Positions 37,897-59,110 of a DNA stretch of 64,000 bases are shown piece after piece. Position 1 is the first letter of the stretch. Every line of letters starts with the position of its first letter. This DNA is from an uncultured Prevotella sp. (GTDB taxonomy: Bacteria; Bacteroidota; Bacteroidia; Bacteroidales; Bacteroidaceae): the NCBI GenBank assembly GCA_900315035.1, contig OMXO01000004.1:6129-70128 (forward strand), in the 5' to 3' direction. The position numbers and the translations under genes are program-made. The notes below the pieces were generated by a model. That model made no database searches. It saw only the letters and a program-made list of their open reading frames with translations, and had not been told where the DNA came from.

Positions 37897-37961
37897 CAAC
37901 ACATAACTAAATACCTGTCGTGTCATACAACGGTCAAGAAAAATGTTATAGGAACGAAAAT

Positions 37962-38957: not shown

Positions 38958-38991
38958 ACCCCCAACAATATAACTAAAGACATTTTATTAA

Positions 38992-39972
38992 ATGGAAGAG
39001 ATCAAAATCAAATCAAGAGTCGTCGGTGTTGATATCAGTAATGAGCGTACCACTTATGCCATTATCGATATTCGTGGTAATATCATTGCTGAGGATTCGT
39101 TCCCTACGGAAGAGTTTGCTGACATCAACGACTTCGTCAAGGCCTTGAGCGAGAAAATCGTGATGCTCGTAGAGAGTAATGGAGGTTATGAGACTATTCG
39201 TTCTATCGGAGTCAGTGCGCCGAGTGCAAGTTCGGTGTCTGGTTGTATTGAGAATGCGGCAAACTTGCCTTGGAAGGGTGTCATCCCTCTGGCTGTGATG
39301 CTACGTGAGCAGATTGGTCTGGCTGTGGGCCTTTCTAATGATGCCCATATCTCTGCGCTTGGTGAACAAGCCTATGGAAGTGCCCACGGCATGCGCAACT
39401 TTATCATCCTCAGTCTGGGTGTGGGGCTCGGCAGTTGCTTCTTCGCAGAAGGCATCGAGCATCAGGGACAGTTCGGCTATGCCGGAGAGTTCGGTCATAC
39501 CTGTGTTGACGATAATGGCCGTCAGTGTGGCTGTGGTCACAGAGGTTGTCTTGAGGCCTATGTCGGTGCAAAAGGTATTGTTCAGACGGCGCGTGAACTC
39601 ATGCAGGGCTCGGATAAGCCCTCATTGATGCGCAGTCTTGATAAACTGTCACCACGTACGATTGCCGAGTGCTGCGACCAGGGCGACGAACTTGCTATAG
39701 AGGTTTATCGCCGTACAGGTTATATTCTGGGTCTGGCAATGGCCAACTATGCCTCTATCGTCGATCCTGAGGCTATCATCCTGACGGGTGGCATCTCTCA
39801 TGCTGGAAAGTGGCTCGTCGATCCGATGTACGAATCCTTTGAATCTCACGTCTTCGGGAATCTTCGTGGAAAAGTGAAGATTCTTACTTCTAAGTTAAAT
39901 GATCGTGAGCGTGACGTGCTGGGTGCTAGTGCCCTCGCCTGGAGCGTTCCTGAGTATTCTTTGTTTAAATAG
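38992..39972 (+). CDS. ROK-family sugar kinase/regulator paralog 2
   Basis: 326 aa. Motifs VVGVDIS and GRQCGCGHRGCLEAY. By eye about 60 percent identical to paralog 1 over the full length. Confidence 0.8.
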   Translation: MEEIKIKSRVVGVDISNERTTYAIIDIRGNIIAEDSFPTEEFADINDFVKALSEKIVMLVESNGGYETIRSIGVSAPSASSVSGCIENAANLPWKGVIPLAVMLREQIGLAVGLSNDAHISALGEQAYGSAHGMRNFIILSLGVGLGSCFFAEGIEHQGQFGYAGEFGHTCVDDNGRQCGCGHRGCLEAYVGAKGIVQTARELMQGSDKPSLMRSLDKLSPRTIAECCDQGDELAIEVYRRTGYILGLAMANYASIVDPEAIILTGGISHAGKWLVDPMYESFESHVFGNLRGKVKILTSKLNDRERDVLGASALAWSVPEYSLFK

Positions 39973-39973
39973 A

Positions 39974-40387
39974 ATGAATGTAGATAATATAAACGAGATT
40001 ATCAACGCTAAACCTAACCTGAGTACCGCCCTCGGCATGGAGTTTATCTCCACGCCTGAGGACGATACCTGTATGGCTCGCATGAAGGTTGACGAACGTA
40101 ATCGTCAGCCTTTCGGCTTTTTAAGTGGTGGTGCCTCTTTGGCTCTTGCAGAGAATGTCGCTGGTGTAGGCTCTTCATCGCTCTGCCCAGGATGTGCTTG
40201 TGTGGGTATCGAGGTGAGTGGCAGTCATGTGAAGGCTGTGGCCGAAGGCGACACCGTAACGGCTTATGCGCGACTACTCCATCAGGGAACCACTCTCCAC
40301 GTGTGGAATGTCGATATCCGTGATACATCCGGTGATCTTATCTCCAACGTGAGGGTCACAAACTATGTCATTAAAAGCAGGAAGTGA
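39974..40387 (+). CDS. Hotdog-fold (PaaI/YdiI-like) thioesterase, probable 1,4-dihydroxy-2-naphthoyl-CoA hydrolase
   Basis: The ATG at 39974 gives MNVDNINEIINAK, 1 nt after the ROK2 stop. About 137 aa. Assigned by its position at the head of the men operon. Confidence 0.65.
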   Translation: MNVDNINEIINAKPNLSTALGMEFISTPEDDTCMARMKVDERNRQPFGFLSGGASLALAENVAGVGSSSLCPGCACVGIEVSGSHVKAVAEGDTVTAYARLLHQGTTLHVWNVDIRDTSGDLISNVRVTNYVIKSRK

Positions 40388-41439
40388 TGTCGGGATTTGC
40401 AGTCTATCGTTTGCCATATGCCGACTATGCCACTATCGTTGAGCAGACATCGGGTGAGCCTTCCGAGTTGTTGTCGTGCAAAGAACTGAACGAACGTCGC
40501 GGTTTCGTCGTAGCCCCCTTTGAGGTGAGAGCCGATCAGCCTATCCTACTCATACATCCAGATAGGGTAGAACAGTTACCCATCAAGTCGATTCCATATA
40601 GGGCGCAGGAGTCAGAGAACTTTAATCGCGATGCTGTCCCGAACTCCACTTATGCGATTGATTTTGCTAATTATCACGCACAACTTTCTCTTGGTGCATT
40701 CCGGAAAATAGTTCTTGCACGCTGTGCCGAGGAGACCGTAGAAGAGGCGGTAGATCCTATGGTATATTTCCATACAGCCTGCAACCTGTATCCCCGCATG
40801 TTTATCGCCCTCGTCTATACCGAGAGAAGTGGATTCTGGCTTACGGCCACTCCAGAAATATTGCTTGAAGGTGGCAATCATCATTGGCGCACCATCGCCT
40901 TGGCTGGCACCATGCGGCTCGAAGGTGAGAATCTCAAAGGCGAGGGCGAGTCTGTCAGTTGGAGTACAAAGAATATTCAGGAGCAGCGTTACGTTGCTAC
41001 TTATATTGCTGAGTGCCTCGAACAGTTTACCCGTGACTTCCACGAAGAAGGCCCCTATACCGTGCGGGCTGCCAATCTCGTACATCTGCGTAGCGACTTT
41101 AATTTCACCCTTCCTTCAGATAATCATATCGGAGACCTGTTGCAGCAACTTCATCCTACGCCTGCTGTCTGTGGTCTGCCCAAGCGTGAAGCCTTTCAGT
41201 TTATTGTGCGTAATGAGCATACGCCCCGTCGATATTACAGCGGGTTCATGGGCATGCTCGATTCGGAAGGCGATACTCACCTTTACGTTTCCTTGCGCTG
41301 TATGAACATCACGGATTACCGCTATCACCTCTATGCTGGAGGCGGTCTGCTAAAGGATAGTGTCCTCGAACAGGAATGGCAGGAGACAGAGGCGAAACTT
41401 GAAACAATGAGAAGATGTATAGCAGTAAAGAAAACGTAA
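40387..41439 (+). CDS. menF: Isochorismate synthase
   Basis: About 350 aa. Chorismate-binding motifs LHPTPAVCGLP and LYAGGGL. The ATG overlaps the upstream TGA (TGATG); an in-frame GTG lies at 40384. Confidence 0.8.
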   Translation: MSGFAVYRLPYADYATIVEQTSGEPSELLSCKELNERRGFVVAPFEVRADQPILLIHPDRVEQLPIKSIPYRAQESENFNRDAVPNSTYAIDFANYHAQLSLGAFRKIVLARCAEETVEEAVDPMVYFHTACNLYPRMFIALVYTERSGFWLTATPEILLEGGNHHWRTIALAGTMRLEGENLKGEGESVSWSTKNIQEQRYVATYIAECLEQFTRDFHEEGPYTVRAANLVHLRSDFNFTLPSDNHIGDLLQQLHPTPAVCGLPKREAFQFIVRNEHTPRRYYSGFMGMLDSEGDTHLYVSLRCMNITDYRYHLYAGGGLLKDSVLEQEWQETEAKLETMRRCIAVKKT

Positions 41440-42953
41440 ACATACTCACCTCGTTGCTTGTGGCTCACGGTATCACTCATGCCGTTGTGTGTCCAGGCAG
41501 CCGTAATGCACCCATCGTGCATAATCTTGATGCGTGTCCTTCCATCCAGTGCTATCCCATTACCGACGAGCGCTCTGCTGGCTTCTATGCCCTCGGTATG
41601 GTGCAGGCTCTGAAACGGCCTGTTGCTGTCTGTGTTACTAGTGGAACGGCGCTTTTGAACCTTGCTCCCGCAGTAGCTGAGGCTTTTTATCAGCATGTGC
41701 CGCTTGTTGTGATCTCTGCTGATCGTCCAGCCGCGTGGATCGACCAACTTGATGGTCAGACACTGCCGCAGCCAGATGCTCTCGGGCGATTTGTGGCGAA
41801 GGCTGTCTCGTTGCCTGAACCTTGCGATGACGATACTCGCTGGTATTGTAACCGTCTTGTCAACGAGGCACTTGTTGTCCGTTGTGCCCCCGTCCATATT
41901 AATGTTCCCATTACGGAACCACTCTTCGACTTCAGCGTCGTAGAGTTGCCCACAGAACGAAAGATAGAGTGTCATTCTGCCGATATGTCGCCTGCAACTC
42001 TGAGCCACATCACGCGTATGTTCCTTCAGGCCAAACGCCCGATGCTTATTAGTGGCCAGCCTATGAATCCGCTCTACGACGAAGCCGTCGCTCTTGTAGG
42101 CGATGACGAGACTTACGTTCCCGACTTCGTGCTTTATACCGGCGGCTCTATCGTGAGCAAACGTCTTAAGCGTTTCCTGCGGAAGGCTAAGGAGACGTGG
42201 GTGGTGAATGAGTCGGGCGAGGTGACCGATACCTTTATGAATCTTACGCAGGTGTTTCAGGGCGACGCAGAGGCTGTAGCCGATCATATTCGCTTCATGC
42301 TGGTGATGGAACCTCATCCCTTCGTGCAGAAGTGGGATGAACTGCTGGCAGACATCCGAAGTCGCGTAACGGTTTATGAACCAGCCTACTCGTCGATGGC
42401 TGCTGTGAAGTATTTCGAACGTTATGTGGGTGATGCCGAAGTGCATTATGCCAATAGTACAGCCATCCGTCTTGCCAATAGTTTCGCTCAGCATCCTGTG
42501 TGGTGTAATCGTGGGGTCAACGGCATCGAGGGCTCTCTTTCTACGGCAGCAGGTTTTTCCTGTATCTCCGACAAACAGGTATTCTGCGTTATCGGCGACC
42601 TCAGTTTCTTCTACGATCAGAACGCATTGTGGAATCAGAATCTTTCTGGCCGTTTCCGTATTCTCCTGCTTAACAATGGATGTGGCGGTATTTTCAACAT
42701 GCTTCCAGGACTTGATCAGAGTCCTGCTCGCGATAGTTTTGTTGCTGCCTCTCATCATACCCGTGCAGAGGGTATCTGTCAGCAAAACGATATCGTTTAT
42801 CTGTCTGCCTCTGATATGCCTGAAATGCGTGCAGGAATCGATACCTTATTAAATATAGAGAGTGATCGCCCTGTGCTTCTCGAGGTGTTTACCTCTCCTC
42901 TCGATGACGAAAGTGTGCTTCGTGACTATTTTACAGCTATTAAATATAAATAA
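41415..42953 (+). CDS. menD: 2-succinyl-5-enolpyruvyl-6-hydroxy-3-cyclohexene-1-carboxylate (SEPHCHC) synthase
   Basis: 512 aa. ThDP-enzyme motifs VCPGSRNAP and IGDLSFFYDQNAL...NNGCGGIF. Confidence 0.85.
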   Translation: MYSSKENVNILTSLLVAHGITHAVVCPGSRNAPIVHNLDACPSIQCYPITDERSAGFYALGMVQALKRPVAVCVTSGTALLNLAPAVAEAFYQHVPLVVISADRPAAWIDQLDGQTLPQPDALGRFVAKAVSLPEPCDDDTRWYCNRLVNEALVVRCAPVHINVPITEPLFDFSVVELPTERKIECHSADMSPATLSHITRMFLQAKRPMLISGQPMNPLYDEAVALVGDDETYVPDFVLYTGGSIVSKRLKRFLRKAKETWVVNESGEVTDTFMNLTQVFQGDAEAVADHIRFMLVMEPHPFVQKWDELLADIRSRVTVYEPAYSSMAAVKYFERYVGDAEVHYANSTAIRLANSFAQHPVWCNRGVNGIEGSLSTAAGFSCISDKQVFCVIGDLSFFYDQNALWNQNLSGRFRILLLNNGCGGIFNMLPGLDQSPARDSFVAASHHTRAEGICQQNDIVYLSASDMPEMRAGIDTLLNIESDRPVLLEVFTSPLDDESVLRDYFTAIKYK

Positions 42954-42962
42954 TGATAGATT

Positions 42963-43817
42963 ATGTCAAGAGATTGGAAACAAATACGCGAATTTAAGGA
43001 GATTCTGTTTGAGTCTTATAATGGTATTGCCAAAATTACCATTAACCGTCCGCAATACCGTAATGCTTTTACCCCCAAGACTACATGGGAACTCTCGCAG
43101 GCCTTTTCGATGTGTCGCGAGATGCAAGACATTTCTGTAGTACTGTTGACGGGCGCGATGTCTGAGGTACCTGAGGGCAAGACTCTCGCCGATGTGAAAC
43201 ATGCGTTCTGCAGTGGTGGTGATATGCATGTGAAGGGGCGTGGCGGCTATGTCGATGAAGAAGGTGTGCCCCGTCTCAGTGTGCTCGATGTGCAGATGCA
43301 GATCCGTCGTCTGCCCAAGCCCGTTATTGCGATGGTGAATGGCTATGCTATCGGTGGTGGTCATGTACTCCACCTTGTCTGTGACCTCACTATAGCCTCC
43401 GAGAATGCCATCTTCGGACAGACGGGACCAAAGGTGGGCTCGTTCGATGCAGGCTTCGGCTCTTCGTATCTGGCTCGTATCGTAGGTCAGAAGAAAGCCC
43501 GCGAGATCTGGTTCCTCTGCCGACAATATACGGCCAAGGAGGCTGAGGAGATGGGGATGGTCAATAAGGTGGTGCCTATAGAGCGCCTCGAAGACGAGTG
43601 TGTCGAGTGGGCAGAAATCATGATGGAACGTTCTCTTCTTGCCTTGCGTATGATCAAGGCTGGACTCAATGCAGAACTCGATGGTCAGGCTGGTATTCAG
43701 GAACTCGCCGGCGACTGCACCATGCTCTACTATTTTCTCGATGAGGCTCAGGAGGGTGGAAAAGCCTTCCTCGAGAAACGCAAGCCCGACTTCAAGAAAT
43801 ATCCCAAACTGCCATGA
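42963..43817 (+). CDS. menB: 1,4-dihydroxy-2-naphthoyl-CoA synthase
   Basis: 284 aa. Crotonase fold with the MenB-typical [21 protein letters not shown]. Confidence 0.9.
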
Positions 43818-44833
43818 CCTATCAGATAGAGAAGCGTCTGCTTCATTTCAAACAGCCTGCAGGAACGTCGCGTGGAGTTTACACTACCAGGAAGATTTGG
43901 TTGGTTCACTTGTCTGATGGCGAAAAGTCTGGAATAGGAGAGTGTGCACCATTGCCTGATTTGAGTTGCGATGTGCTCAGCGATGAGATTTACGAGCAGA
44001 AACTCAACGACTTCTGTTGGGACCTCTGCCAGACGGGCAAGATTGATGTTGAGGCGGTCCGCGACTATCCCTCGATGCTCTTTGGCCTCGAGACAGCCTT
44101 ACTGAACCTTCGCAATGGTAATCTGCTTTTCGATACTCCTTTTTCACGAGGCGAAGAAGGTATCCCCATCAATGGTCTTGTCTGGATGGGGCGTTACGAC
44201 GAGATGCTTCAACGACTTGAAGAAAAGCTTGAGAAAGGCTTCCGTTGCGTCAAACTTAAGATAGGTGCCATCGACTTCGAGCAGGAACTCGATCTCGTTC
44301 GCCGCATTCGTTCTCGCTTCTCATTTCATGAAGTGGAGTTGCGCCTCGACGCTAATGGTGCTTTCCTTTACGAAGAGGCTCTCTATAAACTCGAACTTCT
44401 CTCGCAATATGCTATTCACTCAATAGAACAGCCTATCCGGCAGGGACAATGGGCCTATATGGCAGAACTTTGTCGGGAGTCGCCTCTGCCTATTGCGCTT
44501 GATGAAGAACTTATCGGTGTCAACGATCCTGAGATGAAAAGTCATATGCTCCATATCATCAAACCTCGCTATATCATCCTTAAGCCTTCGCTCCACGGTG
44601 GAATGACGGGTTGTAGGGGATGGATACAGACTGCTAAGGAACAGGGCATTGGCTCGTGGATTACTTCTGCCCTTGAGAGTAACATCGGCCTTAACGCCAT
44701 CGCACAGTTCGCCTCTGATGTCTATGGTTCTCAAATCTCTATGCCCCAGGGACTTGGCACAGGCCAACTCTTTACCGACAATATCCCCATGCCCCTTGAG
44801 ATTCGGGGCGATCAACTTTATATCGGGGCCTGA
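43814..44833 (+). CDS. menC: o-Succinylbenzoate synthase (enolase superfamily)
   Basis: 339 aa. Motifs [19 protein letters not shown] and ALDEEL. The start overlaps the menB stop. Confidence 0.8.
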
Positions 44834-44850
44834 CCCCAGCATCAAATTTT

Positions 44851-45837
44851 ATGATGTCTTTAGACGAATTTTTAGCAGAATGGCATAACGATTCTGAGTT
44901 TGTACATGTGCAGACCAGTGGTTCTACGGGTACTCCTAAGCCCATGATGATCGAGAAGCGGCGTATGCTCGCCTCTGCCCGCATCACTTGCGATTTTCTC
45001 GGTCTCCGTCCTGACGATAGTGCCTTGCTCTGTATGTCGCTCGATTATATCGCGGGTAAGATGATGGTGGTGCGCTCTCTTGAACGACAACTCCGACTCG
45101 TCACCGTTGCTCCCAGTGGTCATCCTCTCTCAAATCTCTCACCTCATAGCTCTTATTTCTCACCTCTTGTCTTTGCGGCAATGGTGCCTTTGCAGGTCTA
45201 TAATTCCCTCCAGGTGCCAGAAGAGTGTGAGCGTCTTCGTGAGATCCGTCATCTGATTATTGGCGGTGGTGCTATCGATGAGGCGATGGCTGCCCAACTA
45301 AAGACTTTTCCCCATGCCGTGTGGAGCACTTATGGTATGACCGAGACACTCTCTCACATAGCTCTTCGTCGCCTCAGTGGTCCCGAAGCCTCCGATTGGT
45401 ATACGCCCTTCCCTTCTGTCAACCTCAGTCTTTCTGTCGATGGCTGTCTGATCATCGAAGCTCCAGAGGTGTGCGAAGAGCGTCTTGTTACCAACGATAT
45501 TGCTGTCTTGTCGCCCGAAGGCCGTTTCCGTATCCTCGGACGTAAAGACAATATGATCTGTTCTGGAGGCATCAAAATTCAGGCTGAGGAGCTAGAACGC
45601 CAACTTCGTCCGCATCTGAGTGCTCCTTTCATGATCACCAAGCGTTCTGATGAGAAGTTTGGCGAGGTTGTCGTACTGCTTACTGAGGGCGACATCTCAG
45701 ATGCCCGAAACGTCTGTGAGCACATCCTCCCCAAATTCCATCATCCCCGAATCTATCTGCATGTTGCCCAGATTCCTCTGACGGCAACGGGCAAGCCTGC
45801 CCGCAAAACAGCCGAGACTATTGCAAAACTTTCGTAA
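44851..45837 (+). CDS. menE: o-Succinylbenzoate--CoA ligase (short AMP-binding enzyme)
   Basis: 328 aa. AMP-binding motifs TSGSTGTPK and YGMTET. Last gene of the men operon. Confidence 0.75.
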   Translation: MMSLDEFLAEWHNDSEFVHVQTSGSTGTPKPMMIEKRRMLASARITCDFLGLRPDDSALLCMSLDYIAGKMMVVRSLERQLRLVTVAPSGHPLSNLSPHSSYFSPLVFAAMVPLQVYNSLQVPEECERLREIRHLIIGGGAIDEAMAAQLKTFPHAVWSTYGMTETLSHIALRRLSGPEASDWYTPFPSVNLSLSVDGCLIIEAPEVCEERLVTNDIAVLSPEGRFRILGRKDNMICSGGIKIQAEELERQLRPHLSAPFMITKRSDEKFGEVVVLLTEGDISDARNVCEHILPKFHHPRIYLHVAQIPLTATGKPARKTAETIAKLS

Positions 45838-50126: not shown

Positions 50127-50158
50127 GGGAACTTGCTCATCAGCAGGTCCCCTTTTTT
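50127..50158 (+). terminator. Intrinsic terminator of the outer-membrane barrel gene
   Basis: GGGAACTTGCT-CATC-AGCAGGTCCCC pairs at 10 of 11 positions including one G-U, followed by T6. Confidence 0.6.
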
Positions 50159-50220: not shown

Positions 50221-50228
50221 TATCTTTG
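50221..50228 (+). promoter_or_regulatory. -7 box TAnnTTTG upstream of the SLC13 remnant (and possibly the STAS operon)
   Basis: TAtcTTTG, 27 nt upstream of nt 50256. No other box was seen before 50821. Confidence 0.4.
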
Positions 50229-50255: not shown

Positions 50256-50795
50256 TTGGGATTGCTCTGTGACATATTCATATTGTGGGGTCTCGGAATA
50301 GACGCTTGGATTACCATCATCACCGTGGTGGCAGTTGTCGCTGTGATGCTGATGACGAAGGTAAGAGCCGATGCCGTGATGCTCATCGCTATCGGGGTGC
50401 TTTTTGCCACGGGCGTACTCGATGCCAAAGAGATGTGCTCGGGCTTTAGCGCAGGCACAGTCGTGGTGACCGGTGTTCTGGCTGCTGCTCGTCGTGGAAA
50501 GCGCATTGAGGCTCCCCTCGTGAGGTACCGCTTCAAGCGGGCGATACATTACTTTTCGAGAGCCCGCGCAAGACGAATATCTTTACCGGAAACCTTGCGT
50601 CGATGTTGCAATTCTCTGATTGCTGCCAACGCCTCGTACGCCACACCTATTGCAGCATCGCCCAACATGTTGGTCTATGGTCCTGGCGGGTATCGCTTCA
50701 CCGACTATATGCGCATTGGTATTCCTCTGACCATTATCATCACCATTACTGGTGTCACGGCTGTGGTCTTGGCATATCCGCTTGTAAAACTATAA
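50256..50795 (+). pseudogene. Remnant of an SLC13/DASS-type permease with the internal ~70 percent of the gene missing
   Basis: A 179-aa ORF joins an N-terminal permease-like segment to the extreme C-terminal family motif. The N-terminal segment is AWITIITVVAVVAVMLMTKVRADAVMLIAIGVLFATGVLDAKEMCSGFSAGTVVV. The C-terminal motif is NASYATPIAASPNMLVYGPGGYRFTDYMRIGIPL. The linker between them is Arg-rich and does not look membrane-like. As I recall, family members are about 600 aa. Confidence 0.5.
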
Positions 50796-50820: not shown

Positions 50821-51132
50821 ATGATAAAGGATTATGAAATAATAAGGGATGGTCCGGTACTGACCATTGTACTGGGCGAAGAATTGGCAACAGGCAATGC
50901 GCCGGCATTGATGGAAGAGGTGGCTGGATATAAAGAACAAGGGTTTGAGAAAGTGGTGTTCGACGCCACAAGACTGAGACACCTTTCGAGTAGTGGAGTG
51001 CGCGTTATCATTTTCTGCAAGCAGAGGTTGGGCAAGAGCCCCGAACTCGTGTTTGTGAACTGCGATAATGGTGTGCTTGACGTATTAGACATTGTCGGTC
51101 TCCGACCATTCATCACTTTTGTGGAACGGTAA
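50821..51132 (+). CDS. STAS-domain protein (anti-sigma-factor antagonist, SpoIIAA/RsbV-like)
   Basis: 103 aa. STAS-like layout with the phospho-loop context FDATRLRHLSSSGVRVIIF. Confidence 0.75.
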   Translation: MIKDYEIIRDGPVLTIVLGEELATGNAPALMEEVAGYKEQGFEKVVFDATRLRHLSSSGVRVIIFCKQRLGKSPELVFVNCDNGVLDVLDIVGLRPFITFVER

Positions 51133-51172
51133 GAGTGACTGATCAAGATAACTTGACTAAAATTGGAAAAAG

Positions 51173-52339
51173 ATGGCTGTAATTAAGATATTGAGCGTCG
51201 ATGATGAGGCGCCTATGGAGTTGCTGATGAAGCAGTATTTCAGGCACAAGATACGTAATGGCGAGTATGAATTTTACTTTGCACGTAACGGTGTGGAGGC
51301 ACTTGATCTCCTGAACAGCACACCCGGCATTGAAATCATACTCTTAGACATCAATATGCCAGAGATGGATGGTCTGACGTTGTTGGCCAAGGTGAACGAG
51401 ATGCACAATCCCTTGTTGCGCGTCATCATGGTGAGTGCTTATGGCGATTTGTCCAACATCCGGCAAGCCATGAACAATGGTGCCTTCGACTTTGTCATGA
51501 AGCCTATTGACATGAACGATCTCAGCGTGACTATCGAGAAGGCCATTGAACAAATCAACTATGTCTATGAGTCGCAGAGGGAACACGCACAATTGGAGTC
51601 GCTGAAGCAAGACTTGACGACAGCCAACAGTATTCAGCAGTATTTTCTGCCACAACAGTTCCCGCCTTTCCCCGAAGTCAGTGATCATCTGAATGTGTTT
51701 GCTTCGATGGAGGCAGCAAAGAATATCGGTGGCGATTTCTATGATTTTTTCCGGGTGGATGATGACCACATCGCTTTCGTCATCGGTGATGTCTGCGGAA
51801 AAGGTATTCCCGCAGCGCTGTTTATGGCATTCTGTTGTAGTACCATACGGTCAAAAGGTGTGCTCTTCAAGAGTGCTCGCGAAAGTATAACGGAATCGAA
51901 CCGTCTGTTGGCATCATACTCGGTAGATTGCATGTTCGTAACCGTGTTCTACGCCATTTACAACACGAAGACCGGACAGGTCGATTGTTGTAATGCCGGC
52001 CATAACCCGCCTCTTTTGCTACGGCGTGACGGTAGTGTGGAAGAGCTGCTCCGATTAGAGAATCCAATGCTGGGCATATTCGAGGAGGCAACGTTCAAGG
52101 AGCACTCCTTGCAAATGGAGCCAGGCGACACATTGGTGATGTTTACCGACGGTGTGACCGAGGCCTGGAATGCCCAAAAAGAGGAACTGGGCGTAGAACG
52201 GTTAAAGGCCATCGTTAGCAGTCAGACGGGCAAGGACAGTCGACAAGTGGTAGAAGCGGTGAAGGCAGCCATCAGCGACTTTGTTGGCGAAGAGGAACAG
52301 AGCGACGATATCACGATGCTGGTCATCAATAGAAAATAG
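51173..52339 (+). CDS. Response-regulator receiver fused to a PP2C (SpoIIE/RsbU-type) phosphatase
   Basis: 388 aa. REC residues VDDE, LLDINMPEMDG and VMKP. PP2C motifs GGDFYDFF, IGDVCGKGIPAALFM, FTDGVTEA and SDDITMLVI. Confidence 0.85.
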   Translation: MAVIKILSVDDEAPMELLMKQYFRHKIRNGEYEFYFARNGVEALDLLNSTPGIEIILLDINMPEMDGLTLLAKVNEMHNPLLRVIMVSAYGDLSNIRQAMNNGAFDFVMKPIDMNDLSVTIEKAIEQINYVYESQREHAQLESLKQDLTTANSIQQYFLPQQFPPFPEVSDHLNVFASMEAAKNIGGDFYDFFRVDDDHIAFVIGDVCGKGIPAALFMAFCCSTIRSKGVLFKSARESITESNRLLASYSVDCMFVTVFYAIYNTKTGQVDCCNAGHNPPLLLRRDGSVEELLRLENPMLGIFEEATFKEHSLQMEPGDTLVMFTDGVTEAWNAQKEELGVERLKAIVSSQTGKDSRQVVEAVKAAISDFVGEEEQSDDITMLVINRK

Positions 52340-52376
52340 ATTAAAGGTGAAGTTACACAAGACGATCGTAGGAGGT

Positions 52377-53885
52377 ATGAGCGTGCTGTTGCTGTTGTTG
52401 GCGGGGGCAGTGGTCTTTATACGCCAGAGCGATGAGGCGCGCATTGGTGAACTGGAGTCGCAGATCGATGAACTGCGGCGGCAGGAGAAACAGTCGGATG
52501 TCGATCGTCGTGTGAGCCAACAGATGGAGGAGATAGCCTACGGTCAGCAGATTTTGGCCGAGGAGCGAAGCGATGAAGCCGTCCGCCAGTCGAAGATAGC
52601 CCAGGAGATGACTCTCCGGTCGGAGGCCGAGCGACAGAAAGCCATCGTGGCACAGGGAATTGCGGAAACGTCTGCCCAAGAGGCGAAGAATGCTTACCAC
52701 ATAGCCGAGCGTCGGCGTGTAGAGGCCGAGCATGCCAAATTAGTGGCCGACACCCTGAATTATATATCTCTTGGGCGAACATTAGGTTCGCAGGCGTATG
52801 CCATCTATCAGGCTGGCGATACAGAGATGGGCAACATGCTGGCCTATGCTGCTTATCGTTTCACCATCGATTACGGTGGCAATCTCTTTATACCCGCTGT
52901 GTTCCAGGCTCTCACGCAGTCGGCTGGCGGTCATCGCAGTTTTGGTGTCCACAATGGTAGCGTTTCCTGCATAAAGATCTCTCCTTACGACAATCATATC
53001 TTGACTGCGAGCACCTATGGCGAGATATTCGTTCACAACATGAATGGTACCCAGTTGCAGACCAAACGACTGATGAGCGACAAGAACTACTGCTTCCGCG
53101 ACGGCTATGCATCCAAGAATGGTAAAGACTATGTCATCAGTCATTCGGGACATCTGCTGGTTGCCGATGGTCATCAGATACGTGTCATCTATTTAGAGAA
53201 TATCGACCGTCCCTTCAGTCTGCAAGACATCCACGATGGTCGTCAACTCTTGATCGTCGGCGAGCATAGTGTCGGTCTGTTCGATTTGGCCACCGAGAAA
53301 GTCATCAGCACGCGTCGCCTCGATTTCCGTGTCGTCAGTGTTGGTAGGCGCGACAATAAACCTCTGCTTTTCGACAATCGCAGTCGCATGCATCTTGTCA
53401 GCAGTCTTGACGATGTGACTCGTGAGAAGGTCCCCGTTTCTGGCCAGGTCACGGCTTTTGTCAGGAACAACAGCAATCGGCTCTCAGCCTACGGAATGGC
53501 CGACGGTACCATTTGGCTGGTCGAGGGGAACGGCAAGGCAAATAAGTTGGTCGGACATCTCTCACAAGTGACGAGACTGGAGTTTGATGGATACCGGCTC
53601 TACTCTTCGAGTTATGACGGGAAACTGTTGTTCTGGATGGTCAATGATCCTCAGATAAAGCCCATCACTCTGTTCCAGGCCAGTAGTTGGCTCAACGATT
53701 TCACCTTCACGAAAGACAAGAGTTACATCTGGACGGGCGAATACAACGGCACAGTCTCCGAGTATCTTATTTCGCTGTCTAGGATTGCCCAACGCCTCCG
53801 CCAGAACGTGAAACGCAATTTCACACCAGAAGAGTGGAACTACTATGTGGGGGAGGGAATACCGTATCTGAAAATTAAAATGTAA
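52377..53885 (+). CDS. Membrane-anchored coiled-coil protein with a WD40-like beta-propeller
   Basis: The ATG at 52377 is preceded by AGGAGG; alternative in-frame starts are GTG 52347 and TTG 52281. TM segment SVLLLLLAGAVVFI, then about 110 aa of coiled coil (ELESQIDELRRQEKQ...). Propeller repeats follow, e.g. GHLSQVTRLEFDGYRLYSSSYDGKLLFW. Confidence 0.65.
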   Translation: MSVLLLLLAGAVVFIRQSDEARIGELESQIDELRRQEKQSDVDRRVSQQMEEIAYGQQILAEERSDEAVRQSKIAQEMTLRSEAERQKAIVAQGIAETSAQEAKNAYHIAERRRVEAEHAKLVADTLNYISLGRTLGSQAYAIYQAGDTEMGNMLAYAAYRFTIDYGGNLFIPAVFQALTQSAGGHRSFGVHNGSVSCIKISPYDNHILTASTYGEIFVHNMNGTQLQTKRLMSDKNYCFRDGYASKNGKDYVISHSGHLLVADGHQIRVIYLENIDRPFSLQDIHDGRQLLIVGEHSVGLFDLATEKVISTRRLDFRVVSVGRRDNKPLLFDNRSRMHLVSSLDDVTREKVPVSGQVTAFVRNNSNRLSAYGMADGTIWLVEGNGKANKLVGHLSQVTRLEFDGYRLYSSSYDGKLLFWMVNDPQIKPITLFQASSWLNDFTFTKDKSYIWTGEYNGTVSEYLISLSRIAQRLRQNVKRNFTPEEWNYYVGEGIPYLKIKM

Positions 53886-53903
53886 TAATAGTAAGCAGGT
53901 AAA

Positions 53904-56615
53904 ATGGAGAAGCAGAACTATCTTCAACGGATCATAGGGATGGTAAAATGGTTTTTACCTTCTTTCCCTCTTGCCCTTTTACCTTTTTTCCTTTTTACCT
54001 TTTTACCTTTACCAGCGTTGGCCCAGGGCCTTCCGCTTATCCGTAATTACACAGCAGCAGAATATGGTGGGCATAACAATTGCTACGATATAGAGATTGG
54101 CGTTGACGGTACTGTGTTTGTGGCTAACTTCGAAGGACTACTCTATTACGACCGTGCAAGGTGGCGCATTATCCATACACCCGATATCAGTCGGATCACG
54201 GTGGTCTATCGTGACAGCAAGAACACGATTTGGGTTGGCGGCTATAACCACTTGTTCCGTTTGCAGGAACGGGCCAATGGCGACTTGTTCTTGCAACAGG
54301 TGGGGCGCGACGGTCAGTTCAAGGGCGAGGTGATGGAGATCTTCGAGGATGGTGGTTCGTTGCTGTTCGTGGCCAGCGACAATAATGTCTATGAAGTCAA
54401 CGGCAGTACCATATCCTTCAAAGAGCAGACGAGTGCAAAATTCAGCCCTGGTGTCGCTTCCAGCATCGTGTCGTTGGGAGCCGTGAAAGAGGGAAGTGCA
54501 GAAGTCATTCTTGATGACATTACTCAAACGGAGAATCTGGACGGCGGGCTTCAGGTCAAGGTCAAGAAGAATTCAGGACTGATCATTGCCGATGCTCAAG
54601 GTCATGAACTCTATACCATTACAGAGGATAACGGCCTGTGTTCCAATCAAGTGGCCTATGTGGCCTACGATGGTCATGGATTGCTCTGGGGCGCAACGTT
54701 GCATGGTGTCTTCTCTATTGAGATCCCTTCACTTTTCAGCTATTTCATGGACAAGGATGGTCTCGATGGCGAGGTACATGCCATCACGGCTTTCGACGGC
54801 AAGATGTATGTGGGCACCACGAACGGCCTTTACAGCATCGCTATTCCCGAGCCAAGCATGCCTGTCCGTAGCCTTTCGTATCAATGCAAGCGTATAGCCG
54901 AAATCAAGAATATATGTTGGACTCTGGCTCCAAGTCGTGACGAACTGTTCGCTGCCACGTCCAGCGGCATCTACAAGATTGCACGAGGCGGCAAGGTAAG
55001 CAGGCTGACTTCTAATTCCACTACCGCCTTGCTAGTTGATGGCGACAAGGTCTATGCCGGAGAACCCGATGGTGTCTATGTCTATCTGCCAGACTTCCTG
55101 AAGCGTACCAAGGTCAACGATATCCCGTTGGCTACCGATATCCGGAAAAATGCTCAAGGCGGTCTCTGGAGCAAGAATGTTCACGGACAGACTGTCGGCG
55201 ATGATCCGGGCATGATACGTGAACCCCTTGCCGATCTGCCTGCTCACCTGAAGAATCCGCTCAGCGACATCGAGGTGACGGCCCAGTATCGTTATGGCAG
55301 TCAGACGTGGATAGGCGGTGATGAGATTCTTGTTGTCGTCGATACCGGTCAGAAAGACCTTGCCCGACTTTCCGATTGTCGTACCGTCCATTTCCGTTCC
55401 ATCATCATGGGCAACGACAGTGTGCTATGGGGTGGCTATGGGGAAATGCCCCAAGAACTATCCAAGTTAGCCGACGATGAGCGCCATCTGCATTTCTTCT
55501 ATGCACTCGACTATACTCCGCTGACGGGTAAGACGCTTTATCGCTATCGCCTGAACAACGACAAATGGAGTGCATGGAGCGAGAAGCAGAGCGTGGAATT
55601 TCTGAATCTGCCCTATGGGTCGTTTACCCTTAGCGTACAGGCCAGACTGGCTAACGGCGAACTGTCGGAGATCGCATCCGTCGATTTTTCCATTGCCTAC
55701 CCATTGTTCATGCGCTGGTATATGGTGGTCATCTACTTCATTCTCTTGGCCTGCCTGGTCTATCTGCTGTTCCGTTATCGTGCCGATCTCCGTCAAGCGC
55801 AACAGGAACTGATACGTCAGGAGAAAATGGCGTCGGTGGGTAAACTGACCGAGGGACTCATTGACCGACTCCTGAACCCGATGAACTATATCATCAACTT
55901 CTCGAAGATGTCAAACGACCTGCTGAAAGACTTCAAGGAGGCTATCGGGCACAAGACAGAGGCGAAGACCGATGGTCAGGTCGTTATCAGCGACAACGAC
56001 TATGAAGACATGCTCGACATCGCTGATATGCTGACCGAGAACCTGCGTAACGTTGACGATTATGGCCAGAACGCCACCCGCATGCTCAAGGCGATGGAGG
56101 AGATGCTGAAAGACCGCCAAGGCGGCTATACCGATATGGATCTCCTGCCTGTGCTTCATCAGAACGAGGAGATGTTCGCCAAATATTATGTCAACGAGAA
56201 AGAAAAGCATCATATCCGTGCAACATTTACTTTGCCCGACAGTGCGATGCCGTTGAACGGAAATCCCGCTTTGCTCAGCAAGGTCTTTATGAATATCCTG
56301 GGCAATGCGGTCTATGCCGTAGTCAGGAAGGCAGAGAGAGCGAAAGGGTTCGTCCCCGAGATATCCCTTGCCGCCACTGTTGTCGATGGACAGTACGTCG
56401 TGGCGGTTCGCGACAACGGCATCGGTATTGACGAGAAACAACTCGACAAGATCTTCAATCCTTTCTTCACCACCAAAACCACCAGCGAGGCTGCAGGCAT
56501 AGGACTCTACCTGAGTCGCGAAATCATACAGAACCACGGCGGCGACATCAGCGTGGAGAGTCGCAAGGACGATTACACAGAGTTTACCATTAGCCTTCCA
56601 AAGGTCAAAAAGTAA
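53904..56615 (+). CDS. HTCS-like periplasmic sensor (Reg_prop repeats + Y_Y_Y) fused to a histidine-kinase-like ATPase core lacking the phospho-acceptor His
   Basis: 903 aa with a signal/TM N-terminus. Propeller repeats include NTIWVGGYNHLFRL, GLLWGATLHGVFSI, KMYVGTTNGLYSI and ELFAATSSGIYKI. Y_Y_Y region is LHFFYALDYTPLTGKTLYRYRLNNDKWSAW, followed by a TM segment (MVVIYFILLACLVYLLF). The H-box-equivalent reads EKMASVGKLTEGLIDRLLNP. N-box NILGNAVYAV, G1 DNGIGI, F FNPFFTTK, G2 GIGLYLS. Confidence 0.8.
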   Translation: MEKQNYLQRIIGMVKWFLPSFPLALLPFFLFTFLPLPALAQGLPLIRNYTAAEYGGHNNCYDIEIGVDGTVFVANFEGLLYYDRARWRIIHTPDISRITVVYRDSKNTIWVGGYNHLFRLQERANGDLFLQQVGRDGQFKGEVMEIFEDGGSLLFVASDNNVYEVNGSTISFKEQTSAKFSPGVASSIVSLGAVKEGSAEVILDDITQTENLDGGLQVKVKKNSGLIIADAQGHELYTITEDNGLCSNQVAYVAYDGHGLLWGATLHGVFSIEIPSLFSYFMDKDGLDGEVHAITAFDGKMYVGTTNGLYSIAIPEPSMPVRSLSYQCKRIAEIKNICWTLAPSRDELFAATSSGIYKIARGGKVSRLTSNSTTALLVDGDKVYAGEPDGVYVYLPDFLKRTKVNDIPLATDIRKNAQGGLWSKNVHGQTVGDDPGMIREPLADLPAHLKNPLSDIEVTAQYRYGSQTWIGGDEILVVVDTGQKDLARLSDCRTVHFRSIIMGNDSVLWGGYGEMPQELSKLADDERHLHFFYALDYTPLTGKTLYRYRLNNDKWSAWSEKQSVEFLNLPYGSFTLSVQARLANGELSEIASVDFSIAYPLFMRWYMVVIYFILLACLVYLLFRYRADLRQAQQELIRQEKMASVGKLTEGLIDRLLNPMNYIINFSKMSNDLLKDFKEAIGHKTEAKTDGQVVISDNDYEDMLDIADMLTENLRNVDDYGQNATRMLKAMEEMLKDRQGGYTDMDLLPVLHQNEEMFAKYYVNEKEKHHIRATFTLPDSAMPLNGNPALLSKVFMNILGNAVYAVVRKAERAKGFVPEISLAATVVDGQYVVAVRDNGIGIDEKQLDKIFNPFFTTKTTSEAAGIGLYLSREIIQNHGGDISVESRKDDYTEFTISLPKVKK

Positions 56616-56620
56616 AAAGT

Positions 56621-59110
56621 ATGGAGCAGAAGAAATATCTATTTATCATCAGTTTCCTTGTTTGTCTTCTTGCTTTGATGCCTTTATCCGCAGGAGCGCA
56701 GACTGATACGGAGATGCGCGATATCTACACGCAGGCAGAGAGCGATTACCAGATAGGCCGAATCGAACAGGCTCGCGATGCCCTGTTGCAACATCTCACC
56801 GACTTCCATGGGAACCAGCGCCAGAGTGCGCTCCGCCTCATTGCCCTTTGCTATCTGGCACGTTTCGATATGGAGAAGACGGAGCACTATGCCTCGCTGA
56901 TATTGCAGGATAACCCTTACTACAGCCCGTCGTCGCTTGATCCCGCGATCTTTGCCGATATCGTGAACAGCATCAAGTCTGGTATGACCGCTACCATTAC
57001 CACCGCTTCCAGTCAGACAGAGAGTCTGTTAGAGGTGCCTGTTCCCTCAGCGCTCATTACCGCCGAAATGATCAGGAACAGCGGAGCCCGAAATCTGCAG
57101 GAAGTGCTTGCTACCTATGTGCCTGGCATGAACATTGTCGATTGTAACGACGATATCAACATCGCCATGCGCGGCATCTACAGTTATACGCAGGAAAAGA
57201 TTCTCATCATGCTCAATGGGCATCGTCTGAACAGTTATGCTACCAACACCGCTGCGCCCGATTTCAGCATCTCCTTGGAGAATGTGAAACAGATAGAAGT
57301 GCTGCGTGGTCCCGCCTCCTCACTTTATGGCGATGTGGCTCTTACCGGTGTGGTGAATATCATCACCAAACAAGGAGCCGATGTGGACGGCATCAAGGCG
57401 AAAGTTGCGGCAGGTAATCACGGGCAGATCAAGGCCGACGCCATCCTCGGCAAGCGTTATTTCGACATCGACCTGCTCGTCTGGGGAAGTGCCTATCGCA
57501 ACAGTGGCGATCGGCCTATCGGCAATCATCCCTCCTATGACTTAGGCCTGCAACTGGGTTATAAAGGTCTGCAACTCATGTACGACACCCATTTCTCACA
57601 GGTTGCCGCCCCGTTTACCATGGGTTGTCCTGCCATGCCATACAACCGTGAGCGCTATATTACCCAAAATGCTTACGGTCCCAGTTTTGCTACCAGTTCA
57701 CGACATCTCGACCTGAGTTACAACCATCAGATGGGCAACTTGAATCTGAAGTATGCCGCCACCTACGACAAGTCGGATATGACGCGCTATCAGGTGCTTA
57801 GCGACGAGCCGTCACACATATTGTCTTGGACGCTCCCGTTGCCTCTTTACATGATACAAGTGTATGACTCTTTGGGAGGACTCTCCCGATATGTCAACGG
57901 CCAGGATCAGCACTTCGGCTTCCAGCTGAAGGGCAACTATGCCTATACACTGAGTGCCCGACAAAAGGGCCATATCAGTTTCGGAGCCGAGTATGGTCAC
58001 TTCAAACTCGATGACATGCGCTATCAGATGGGCTATAATTTCGTAGAGACATTCGCCGGGGATGTGAAGACGCGCGGAATCGGAAAGGGTAGAGAGAACA
58101 GTGCCAATGTCTATCTGCAACTGAAGCATCAGTGGGATTTCTCTCTCTTCTCCTATCCCTCTTCACTGCTTCTGAATGCCGGTATGCGTTTCGACTACAA
58201 GAACCACTATGACGATACTCAGGTGCGTGAACTGTCGCCTCGAGTGGCCCTCATCCTGTTGCGCCCCAAGTGGAACGTCAGGCTGAGTTATTCCAAGTCG
58301 TTTGTCGATGTACCATATCTCTATCGCAAATCCAATGCCCTCGCTGCATTGATTCGTGAGCGCAAAAACGATGAAAGCCTCTCGCCTGAGCGCGCTCACT
58401 CCTTCCAACTCTCATTTGCAGGACTAAACTGGGTGAAAGGGCTGAATTTCGAAGTCAACGGTTTCTACAATCATGCCTCAGACCTCATTATGACCGATAT
58501 TCTCACCTACAAGAACACGAGCCAGAACAGAACCGGCGGACTGGAGTTGATGGCTGGTTACAGACGGCCGAGGCTCACCACTCACTGGAACCTGACCTGG
58601 ACGCACACTTTCAAGTCGACTATCGTACCCATAGAACTCTACGAGAAACTGATGCCCTATTATTCTTATAACATCGATGACAACAATAATACCCCGGTCA
58701 TCATGTCGAATCTGGTAGTCGGTTGGCAGGCTGCGTCTCGGTTGCGACTTCATGCCCATGTGCTCTTCGAGAGCAGTCAGACATCGTATAACATCGATCT
58801 TGAGCAATTTGCCAAGACTCGCACCCAATACTTCTTATACGATCTTTACTACCCCATTCATGACATGGAGAAGCTGGCCGCTATCTACTGGGCTAGCGCT
58901 GTAGATGCTGCGCAGAAGACTGTTAGCCGTCATGAGATGTCTGCCCGCTGCATCCTGAACGTCGGTGGCGAATATACGTTCGGGCCCGTCACCATCGGGC
59001 TGGACATCCACAATCTTCTGGGTACTCGCTATAACCGTAGTGGCATGAACACGATCCTGATTCCCCAGCAAGGACGTTGGCTCATGGGCAGCATTGCCGT
59101 CAGTTTATAG
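56621..59110 (+). CDS. TonB-dependent-receptor-like outer-membrane protein with an N-terminal TPR-like extension
   Basis: 829 aa with a signal peptide. About 100 aa of helical TPR-like region (YQIGRIEQARDALLQHL...ALRLIALCYLARFDMEKTEHYASLIL). Plug-like region (VPVPSALITAEMIRNSGARNLQEVLATYVPGM...EVLRGPASSLYGDVALTGVVNIITKQG), then a long beta-barrel. Confidence 0.7.
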   Translation: MEQKKYLFIISFLVCLLALMPLSAGAQTDTEMRDIYTQAESDYQIGRIEQARDALLQHLTDFHGNQRQSALRLIALCYLARFDMEKTEHYASLILQDNPYYSPSSLDPAIFADIVNSIKSGMTATITTASSQTESLLEVPVPSALITAEMIRNSGARNLQEVLATYVPGMNIVDCNDDINIAMRGIYSYTQEKILIMLNGHRLNSYATNTAAPDFSISLENVKQIEVLRGPASSLYGDVALTGVVNIITKQGADVDGIKAKVAAGNHGQIKADAILGKRYFDIDLLVWGSAYRNSGDRPIGNHPSYDLGLQLGYKGLQLMYDTHFSQVAAPFTMGCPAMPYNRERYITQNAYGPSFATSSRHLDLSYNHQMGNLNLKYAATYDKSDMTRYQVLSDEPSHILSWTLPLPLYMIQVYDSLGGLSRYVNGQDQHFGFQLKGNYAYTLSARQKGHISFGAEYGHFKLDDMRYQMGYNFVETFAGDVKTRGIGKGRENSANVYLQLKHQWDFSLFSYPSSLLLNAGMRFDYKNHYDDTQVRELSPRVALILLRPKWNVRLSYSKSFVDVPYLYRKSNALAALIRERKNDESLSPERAHSFQLSFAGLNWVKGLNFEVNGFYNHASDLIMTDILTYKNTSQNRTGGLELMAGYRRPRLTTHWNLTWTHTFKSTIVPIELYEKLMPYYSYNIDDNNNTPVIMSNLVVGWQAASRLRLHAHVLFESSQTSYNIDLEQFAKTRTQYFLYDLYYPIHDMEKLAAIYWASAVDAAQKTVSRHEMSARCILNVGGEYTFGPVTIGLDIHNLLGTRYNRSGMNTILIPQQGRWLMGSIAVSL

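Follow-up and report, generated by a model that had tools for sequence, protein, structure and literature searches.

An apparently reduced copy of a Bacteroidota envelope-signaling cluster in an uncultured Prevotella, with a truncated STAS/PP2C switch and an Asp-Arg sensor that lacks the acceptor His

Our analysis of 64,000 nucleotides (nt) of DNA from an uncultured Prevotella sp. (GenBank assembly GCA_900315035.1, contig OMXO01000004.1, positions 6,129 to 70,128 of the forward strand; this whole 64-kb stretch is hereafter called the window, and coordinates refer to it unless a related locus is named) indicates that five genes at 50821-59110 form a reduced copy of a conserved envelope-signaling cluster of the Bacteroidota, with a truncated partner switch. 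The five open reading frames (ORFs), all on the + strand, encode a single-domain STAS protein of 103 amino acids (aa) with a phosphorylatable Ser in an HLSSSG loop (g1, 50821-51132); a 388-aa protein that joins a response-regulator receiver (REC) domain to a PP2C (SpoIIE-family) Ser/Thr phosphatase (g2, 51173-52339); a protein with an N-terminal membrane anchor, a coiled coil of about 150 aa and a WD40 beta-propeller (g3, 52347-53885); a 903-aa sensor kinase-like protein without acceptor His, which we call DR-type for the Asp-Arg pair that it carries instead (g4, 53904-56615); and an 829-aa outer-membrane protein with a signal peptide, a Plug domain and a putative barrel, similar to TonB-dependent receptors (g5, 56621-59110). 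The intergenic gaps measure 40, 7, 18 and 5 nt when GTG 52347 is taken as the start of g3; this codon aligns with residue 1 of the orthologues, the alternative ORF call being an overlapping TTG at 52281. The switch thus consists of a STAS protein without an adjoining kinase and a REC domain without an adjoining His kinase, next to intact REC-PP2C, WD40, sensor and Plug proteins. A first-pass annotation, made from the sequence and its ORFs, had described five co-directional genes 5-40 nt apart and had assigned domains to their products; the ORF coordinates bear out the former, and profile searches, which it had proposed, the latter for all five proteins. The count of five is itself an artefact of decay, as the unit begins with a permease pseudogene at 50256-50795.

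The evidence for reduction comes from relatives and from strains of the same species. Four contigs encoding g4 homologues at 67-70% identity (loci L001, L005, L086 and L087) place a Ser kinase of the RsbW type (HATPase_c_2, 133-152 aa) where the window has the 40-nt junction at 51133-51172. In L001, L005 and L087, the order is a 601-aa SLC13/CitMHS permease with TrkA_C, STAS, HATPase_c_2 kinase (133-136 aa), REC-PP2C, WD40, sensor and Plug; the fullest relative, L086, which belongs to an abundant cluster of 903-aa homologues (more than 40 contigs), has eight genes in the order STAS, HATPase_c_2 kinase, REC-PP2C, WD40, DR sensor, a 272-aa HisKA+HATPase_c protein, Plug and permease. No match to the RsbW-type gene was found by tblastn or hidden Markov model (HMM) searches in all 64 kb of the window, which confirms the first-pass statement that no small kinase of this type is present. 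The gene is also absent from the STAS-REC-PP2C junction in L004 and L089, two strains of the same species at 97-99% DNA identity that were obtained from contigs encoding homologues and from a metagenome DNA-pattern scan. Because relatives carry RsbW in the orthologous position, the missing kinase appears to reflect lineage-specific gene loss and not the design of the system. The first-pass annotation had raised the case of a canonical RsbW-like kinase and a sigma factor elsewhere as the true partners of this STAS protein; the comparison with relatives comes close to supplying the kinase, and the sigma factor did not emerge with it.

A second gap tells a similar story. Most related loci place a soluble, sensor-less His kinase of 272-290 aa (AGIAHEIQNPLNFVINF) where the window has the 5-nt junction at 56616-56620, and this small His kinase is absent at the same position from the window, L001-L005, L007, L018 and L087. 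At the upstream end, the SLC13/CitMHS+TrkA_C permease gene that heads or ends the cluster in relatives survives in the window as three fragments (50256-50792, + strand) that match residues 1-83, 348-396 and 543-601 of the 601-aa L001 protein alone (tblastn) and that give weak Pfam matches to Na_sulph_symp and CitMHS. The permease frame is intact in L089 (605 codons), where STAS is also intact and RsbW is still lacking, and it is fragmented in L004 as in the window. L004 otherwise shares the layout of the window, with the addition of a 42-nt in-frame deletion in STAS (at 1998-1999 in L004, corresponding to window 50923-50964) which takes out 14 residues (AGYKEQGFEKVVFD) immediately ahead of the phospho-Ser loop. 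Genes g2 to g5 have their full length in both the window and L004, as do g1 and g2 in L089, whose contig ends within g3. Given the layouts of L004 and L089, the loss of RsbW and of the small kinase is common to the sampled strains, and the decay of the permease is both recent and polymorphic.

The conserved cluster itself is widespread. REC-PP2C, WD40, sensor and outer-membrane protein genes recur in the same order in more than 50 species-level genomes, so the array is not a chance arrangement; the first-pass annotation had proposed this gene-neighborhood comparison as well. A search of representatives of 50%-identity clusters returned 116 full-length relatives of the 903-aa protein among its best 150 matches, 72 with the motif G[LI][IV]DR[IV][LI]NP and 44 with the canonical GIAHEI[KQ]NP, and the Asp-Arg form persists down to about 30% identity and occurs in larger proteins as well (1250-2084 aa). 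At least 593 relatives, counting both types, were confirmed when one genome per species was scanned, and the best 80 loci were analyzed; among the matches listed, the best is 65% identical and the window's own species does not appear. Loci were annotated with HMMs built from the L001 proteins, and the 81 with a DR gene include the window and the metagenomic L001-L005, L086 and L087. The small soluble His kinase lies directly 3' of the DR gene in 63 of these 81; REC-PP2C is found in 67, the Plug protein in 62 and WD40 in 61. Within 10 kb, STAS occurs in 20 and the RsbW-type kinase in 16, and 16 of the 20 STAS-bearing loci have an RsbW-type kinase of their own adjoining it.

Several layouts can be distinguished among these loci. 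The most frequent order, seen in 30 loci and in close variants besides, runs REC-PP2C, WD40, DR sensor, small His kinase, Plug. In Parabacteroides, Tannerellaceae and Alistipes, STAS and RsbW precede a short DR protein whose membrane part is a two-helix hairpin, followed by the small His kinase and REC-PP2C, and HMM annotation of these loci found no WD40 or Plug protein. The Dyadobacter locus reads STAS, RsbW, an nSTAND1-NTPase fused to WD40, TonB-dependent receptor, GNAT, MFS+HEAT, DR sensor, small His kinase and REC-PP2C. In L002, L003, L013, L031 and L058, the WD40, DR sensor and Plug genes stand alone, with or without the permease and with no STAS or PP2C. A canonical large sensor with His accompanies WD40 and Plug in L083, and the same sensor type accompanies STAS, REC-PP2C and RsbW in L080 and L082; we presume that these loci retain the ancestral wiring. 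The full two-component and partner-switch set (His kinase, REC-PP2C, STAS and RsbW) is present in L086, L062-L068, L072 and L076, and the window holds just REC-PP2C and STAS of it. Two further arrangements were seen in relatives. In some Parabacteroides/Tannerellaceae loci, two tandem short DR-type genes precede the small His kinase (L070 9632-11950; L075 1809-4121), and in some Prevotellaceae, second partner-switch modules adjoin the cluster (L005 176-2799; L053 4617-7113), one of them a dCache-SpoIIE-HATPase_c_2 fusion with its own STAS gene, so that paralogous kinases able to cross-phosphorylate would exist in this family.

Pfam recognizes HATPase_c (7e-22), Y_Y_Y (2.6e-7) and, weakly, Reg_prop in g4, giving a layout like that of a hybrid two-component system (HTCS) sensor, with a periplasmic propeller and Y_Y_Y domain, one transmembrane helix (605-624), a DHp region and an intact ATP-binding domain. 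Its H box, GLIDRLLNP, aligns residue by residue with the G.AHE..NP of ZraS and FixL, and the phospho-acceptor His and the Glu that follows it are replaced by Asp654 and Arg655 (codons at 55863-55868, + strand). This pair is invariant in our alignment A1 and present in 120 of 120 close homologues. All four ATP-binding boxes (N, G1, F and G2) are preserved, and N801, D837, G839, G841, F854, G865 and G867 are at least 90% conserved. In the AlphaFold2 model (mean pLDDT 82), the periplasmic part is beta-rich and finds its best PDB matches in the sensor domains of the HTCS proteins BT4663, BT3049 and BT4673 (Foldseek, E about 1e-23), with phmmer matching 4a2l and 3v9f (7e-7); the kinase core matches ZraS and HK853, in agreement with sequence searches, and the protein terminates with the ATP-binding domain. 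Pfam found no Response_reg and no HTH_18/AraC domain. The first-pass description of an HTCS-type sensor without acceptor His therefore holds, and the fused REC and helix-turn-helix (HTH) domains have been lost as well.

Phylogeny sets the DR proteins apart. When 223 kinase cores were placed in a neighbor-joining tree, one pure clade took in each of the 107 DR cores, and 60 of the 65 small His kinases form one clade nested among the large sensors with His. The small kinases of the cluster, which are of the 'AGIAHEIQNPLNF' type, have no sensor and no transmembrane segment and begin directly at DHp. The two paralogues have retained the whole set of ATP-binding boxes (N, G1, F, G2), and their helix-1 surfaces after the H/D position are near-identical. 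Relative to L004, g4 and g5 show ratios of nonsynonymous to synonymous substitution rates (dN/dS) of 0.15 and 0.26, respectively, and are under purifying selection; g1 to g3 differ from L004 by 3-6 substitutions per gene, too few for an estimate of selection. A 57-nt (19-aa, LKKLEKDKIKLERVVEERT) indel interrupts the helix between the transmembrane segment and DHp at 55781/55782 (L004 6816-6872), the window carrying the short allele, which has the same borders in L001, another species with a fuller locus. The window and L004 are 99.2% identical up to exactly this point and 96.7% identical beyond it, which suggests recombination between alleles.

The STAS protein (Pfam STAS, 5e-11) is 66% identical to its L001 counterpart, and the Ser of its HLSSSG loop aligns with Ser58 of SpoIIAA; the phospho-loop Ser is conserved in all STAS proteins of the cluster in our alignment. 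In g2 (SpoIIE, 1e-51; Response_reg, 8e-23), the REC residues D10, D11, D59 (the acceptor), S88 and K110 and the metal-binding PP2C residues D188, D191, D206, D326, D378 and D379 are intact and invariant in 70 orthologues, an invariance that extends to the clade without the small His kinase. Similarity to Pseudomonas RssB spans the whole protein, at 114 bits where the family cutoff is 700, and g2 is not an RssB equivalog. Several WD40 beta-propeller families match g3 at 1e-10 to 1e-5, PF00400 reaches 31.5 bits (cutoff 27), and the Dyadobacter homologue gives strong WD40 matches. In the Dyadobacter locus L076 (614-3841 and 6343-9921), an nSTAND1 NTPase takes the place of the membrane anchor in the WD40 protein, and genes for a GNAT and an MFS protein with HEAT repeats separate the TonB-dependent receptor from the DR sensor. 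Both the anchor of g3 and the K/R residues ahead of it are conserved in orthologues; an anchor so preceded suggests a periplasmic propeller, tentatively so in view of the cytoplasmic-type NTPase fusion in Dyadobacter. The outer-membrane protein g5 matches Pfam Plug (2.4e-18) and, weakly and along its full length, TonB-dependent receptors. Pfam barrel models all stay below threshold for g5 itself, and NCBIfam TonB-hemin covers residues 125-665 at 90 bits (cutoff 317); its orthologues match OMP_b-brl_3 weakly and the Dyadobacter counterpart matches TonB_dep_Rec_b-barrel at 2e-27. An N-terminal extension of about 95 aa, TPR-like and without an STN domain in Pfam, is conserved in 53 orthologues.

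Considering these data, we favor an explanation, held as a whole with moderate confidence, in which the window carries a reduced cluster and the 903-aa DR protein intervenes at the two-component step, its target being either the small His kinase or the REC domain. We place the DR protein at this step because it and the small His kinase each lack what the other has (the DR protein a His, the small kinase a sensor), because the two are adjacent paralogues, and because REC-PP2C is the most faithful companion of the DR gene. In this scenario, a periplasmic cue, possibly a solute imported by the outer-membrane protein, would be read by the HTCS-like propeller of the DR protein. Not being phosphorylatable on His, the DR protein would act on the paralogous sensor-less His kinase or on REC, be it through a DHp heterocomplex that gates or trans-phosphorylates the small kinase, as a signal-controlled phosphatase docking on REC, or by allosteric docking on REC. 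The phosphorylation state of REC set in this way would govern the PP2C activity, the phosphatase would dephosphorylate phospho-STAS and thereby counteract RsbW, and free STAS or RsbW would then act on a target other than an adjoining sigma factor. Several observations weigh against this explanation. The role of the DR protein is read from gene adjacency and sequence, and the genome search covered 64 kb of this genome. Fourteen loci whose downstream flank is covered have no small His kinase, and five of these (L002, L003, L013, L031 and L058) also have no REC-PP2C; in such loci, therefore, DR function would be independent of adjacent partners, or the partners would be unlinked. The strict Asp-Arg pair together with the intact ATP site suggests a positive catalytic role over a simple loss of function. 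Finally, 47 loci have REC-PP2C with no STAS or RsbW within 10 kb, which leaves room for the DR protein as the kinase of the PP2C substrate.

This last point leads to an alternative in which the DR protein is a sensor-controlled Ser/Thr kinase derived from a His kinase that phosphorylates STAS or another substrate, with REC-PP2C reversing the modification and with the DR protein as the sole kinase of the window's STAS. Its ATP-binding boxes are intact and conserved and the acceptor His has been exchanged for a strict Asp-Arg; an intact STAS is retained without RsbW in the window and L089, and in the 47 loci just mentioned, another kinase must make the substrate of the PP2C. Moreover, Ser/Thr kinases are known among the His-less eukaryotic relatives of His kinases, for example certain ethylene receptors and phytochromes and the PDK/BCKDK enzymes. 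We nevertheless consider the alternative unlikely, as STAS loci nearly always have their own adjoining RsbW-type kinase (16 of 20), and the DR gene co-occurs with the small His kinase (63) and REC-PP2C (67) far more often than with STAS (20) and is present in loci that have neither STAS nor PP2C. STAS has decayed in one strain (L004), as expected once its kinase is gone, and we know of no bacterial DHp-containing kinase that phosphorylates a STAS protein. The first-pass proposal that the 903-aa protein supplies the RsbW role finds no support here as the design of the system, since the RsbW of relatives sits where the window has a gap and the DR gene tracks the His kinase and REC-PP2C; as a biochemical activity, Ser/Thr phosphorylation by the DR protein keeps a low probability. 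A bolder version would give the large, monophyletic DR family of the Bacteroidota a new chemistry, either sensor-gated Ser/Thr kinases whose marks are erased by REC-PP2C or a catalytic Asp-Arg pair, and, together with the WD40 and outer-membrane proteins, a trans-envelope machine that works post-translationally, for example on the permease, and not through transcription; we regard this as distinctly improbable.

According to another view, the DR protein would be a noncatalytic pseudokinase that binds REC, phosphorylated or not, and switches the PP2C allosterically on a periplasmic signal, or a sensor with phosphatase activity only toward phosphorylated REC; either way, the phosphoryl group would be provided by acetyl phosphate or by a kinase, be it the small His kinase or a different one. 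We find this unlikely. The DR protein keeps the +4 Asn of the HisKA phosphatase motif, yet the +1 Glu of that motif has become Arg. REC-PP2C still accompanies the DR gene in those loci whose clade has lost the small His kinase (window, L001, L004, L005, L007, L008, L018 and L087), and the helix-1 surface I.NP.N[YF][IV].NFS is near-identical in the DR and His paralogues, so that the same REC could be docked by both; however, some DR-sensor loci have no REC-PP2C, and a pure scaffold would not need fully conserved ATP-binding boxes. A precedent exists in DivL, a kinase that has no His and has been repurposed to read a response regulator (PMC4211667). It might also be argued that the locus in this genome is a nonfunctional relic whose frames are open because decay is recent, given that three components (RsbW, the small His kinase and the permease) are lost or broken, that STAS carries a deletion in L004 and that g4 carries a linker indel. 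This we hold to be very improbable: g2 to g5 in the window and L004 and g1 and g2 in L089 are full length, the dN/dS values of g4 (0.15) and g5 (0.26) are low, no catalytic residue has been lost, a second species with a fuller locus likewise carries the short linker allele, and the trio of WD40, sensor and outer-membrane protein stands alone in other species.

A match to the Bacteroidetes -7 consensus TAnnTTTG (TATCTTTG, 50221-50228, + strand), preceded by a terminator-like hairpin at 50131-50148, is the sole + strand match from 50221 until 59573, and we infer that it is the likely promoter of the whole unit, including the dead permease, as one transcription unit. In the whole window, the motif occurs 40 times against 23 expected, a count reached by none of 100 shuffles; a scan for sigma-70-type promoters and terminators gave counts no different from shuffles and was uninformative. 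As for the output, the first-pass annotation had seen no sigma factor or HTH protein, and no sigma-70 or HTH domain was found in the 45 of 49 predicted window ORFs scanned. The same holds within 10 kb of the cluster in six Pfam-annotated relatives, and an unlinked target is possible. Since a transporter is repeatedly found near the cluster (the SLC13/TrkA_C permease in Prevotella, MFS+HEAT in Dyadobacter) and since the sensor shares its fold with the periplasmic sensors that detect ligands in nutrient-uptake loci, our guess is that the output is control of a solute uptake route.

We also considered whether the permease is the target of STAS, a weakly supported idea. It is linked to the cluster in Prevotella loci alone (L001-L003, L005, L086, L087 and L089, with remnants in the window and L004), and it also stands in loci without STAS (L002 and L003). 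In L086, the permease is followed by genes for an HD_4 hydrolase and a small RelA_SpoT synthetase (17893-19562), a possible link to (p)ppGpp signaling. The nSTAND1 NTPase of Dyadobacter prompted a reading of the cluster as a defense system, which we rejected: PADLOC returned no hit for the five proteins or for the RsbW and small kinase of relatives, and an eLife paper on such NTPase systems mentions no comparable STAS, PP2C or TonB link.

Two other genes of the window encode domains that also occur in the cluster and are unlinked to it, namely a standard HisKA+HATPase_c sensor kinase that has its His, at the left end (628-2391, - strand), and a SulP sulfate permease with a C-terminal STAS domain (31208-32908, + strand). 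Upstream of the cluster lie a menaquinone-type row comprising a chorismate-binding enzyme, a thiamine pyrophosphate enzyme, a member of the enoyl-CoA hydratase family, a MenC-like protein and an AMP-binding enzyme (40384-45837), and two tandem ROK-family genes (37920-39972). An Omp85/POTRA protein is encoded beside a 1569-aa TamB-like protein (11435-18575, - strand) as a TAM-like pair, in a stretch of higher G+C content (0.54-0.55) that also contains a ketoacyl-synthase-like gene and a DUF3160 gene.

The cluster is common to gut and rumen Prevotella, Parabacteroides and soil Cytophagales and is absent from the searchable literature: searches on partner switching in Bacteroidetes or Prevotella, on the Pfam domain names and on WD40 with TonB and PP2C returned no description of it, in keeping with the first-pass remark that no characterized system has this composition. 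It merges in one unit HTCS-type periplasmic sensing beside a Plug/barrel protein, a two-component step and a STAS/RsbW/PP2C switch, with no sigma factor or DNA-binding domain. What first appears striking in the window, a switch without its kinase, is gene loss; the family behind it is still widespread, uncharacterized and mechanistically odd. The pairing of a DR sensor with a sensor-less His kinase provides a natural system for studying how His-less kinases signal, and the cluster is useful for asking what partner switches do in the Bacteroidota, a phylum for which we know of no SigB/SigF-type target. The window is in effect a natural partial knockout, in which RsbW and the small kinase are gone and the permease is broken in some strains, so strain comparison could aid the assignment of function.

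Among known systems, the HTCS proteins BT4663, BT3049 and BT4673 share with g4 the fold of the periplasmic Reg_prop propeller and Y_Y_Y domain, and, as in polysaccharide utilization loci, g4 is encoded beside an outer-membrane Plug/barrel protein. Unlike an HTCS, g4 is devoid of an acceptor His, a fused REC domain and an AraC HTH, and the output of the cluster would be a Ser/Thr phosphatase module in place of HTCS transcription. Transducers of the FecA type resemble g5 in that a Plug/barrel protein with a conserved periplasmic N-terminal extension is encoded with an inner-membrane sensor, and g5 may have a signaling role; the extension of g5 is, however, TPR-like instead of STN, and the FecR/extracytoplasmic function sigma pair is missing.

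Kinase-like proteins that make no use of a His of their own and work through a second His kinase or a response regulator have been described before. In Pseudomonas, RetS is an atypical kinase that partners a true His kinase, GacS. In the FasB/FasC heterodimer of group A Streptococcus, the DHp His comes from one subunit and the kinase domain from its partner (PMC12675982), and Caulobacter DivL reads a response regulator (PMC4211667). The DR protein would belong with these, and adjacent His-less and His paralogues reminiscent of FasB/FasC are found in 63 of the 81 related loci, the window having a 5-nt gap instead. Unlike FasB/FasC and DivL, the DR family is monophyletic, with a fixed Asp-Arg pair and an HTCS-type sensor, and what lies downstream is a PP2C and not a transcription factor.

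The closest parallels to the switch itself are systems in which a two-component step feeds into a PP2C. In Mycobacterium smegmatis, the His kinase RsfS acts through the REC-PP2C protein RsfR on the STAS protein RsfB (PMC10950880), and in Bacillus cereus, the His kinase RsbK sets the activity of the REC-PP2C protein RsbY toward phospho-STAS (PMC4574943, PMC9912610). All parts of RsbK/RsbY/RsbV/RsbW and RsfS/RsfR/RsfB, including re-phosphorylation by an RsbW-type kinase, have counterparts in the full clusters of L086, L076 and L062. The cluster differs in having no linked sigma factor in the annotated relatives, in coupling a sensor without acceptor His to a separate sensor-less His kinase, and in including a WD40 protein, a Plug/barrel protein and often a permease; the window, in addition, lacks both kinases. 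Switches in which a REC-containing PP2C controls STAS with an output other than a cognate sigma factor include Pseudomonas HptB/HsbR/HsbA and RssB/RssC and Vibrio fischeri SypE/SypA (PMC6482189, PMC10120452, PMC8256260); unlike the cluster, these are cytoplasmic and have no HTCS-like sensor, WD40 or outer-membrane partner. In conclusion, the ingredients are known already, namely partner switching, a PP2C fed by a two-component step and His kinases with a His-less partner; what is new here is the clade with a fixed Asp-Arg pair and an HTCS sensor, together with its linkage to genes for a WD40 protein and for an outer-membrane protein with a TPR-like extension.

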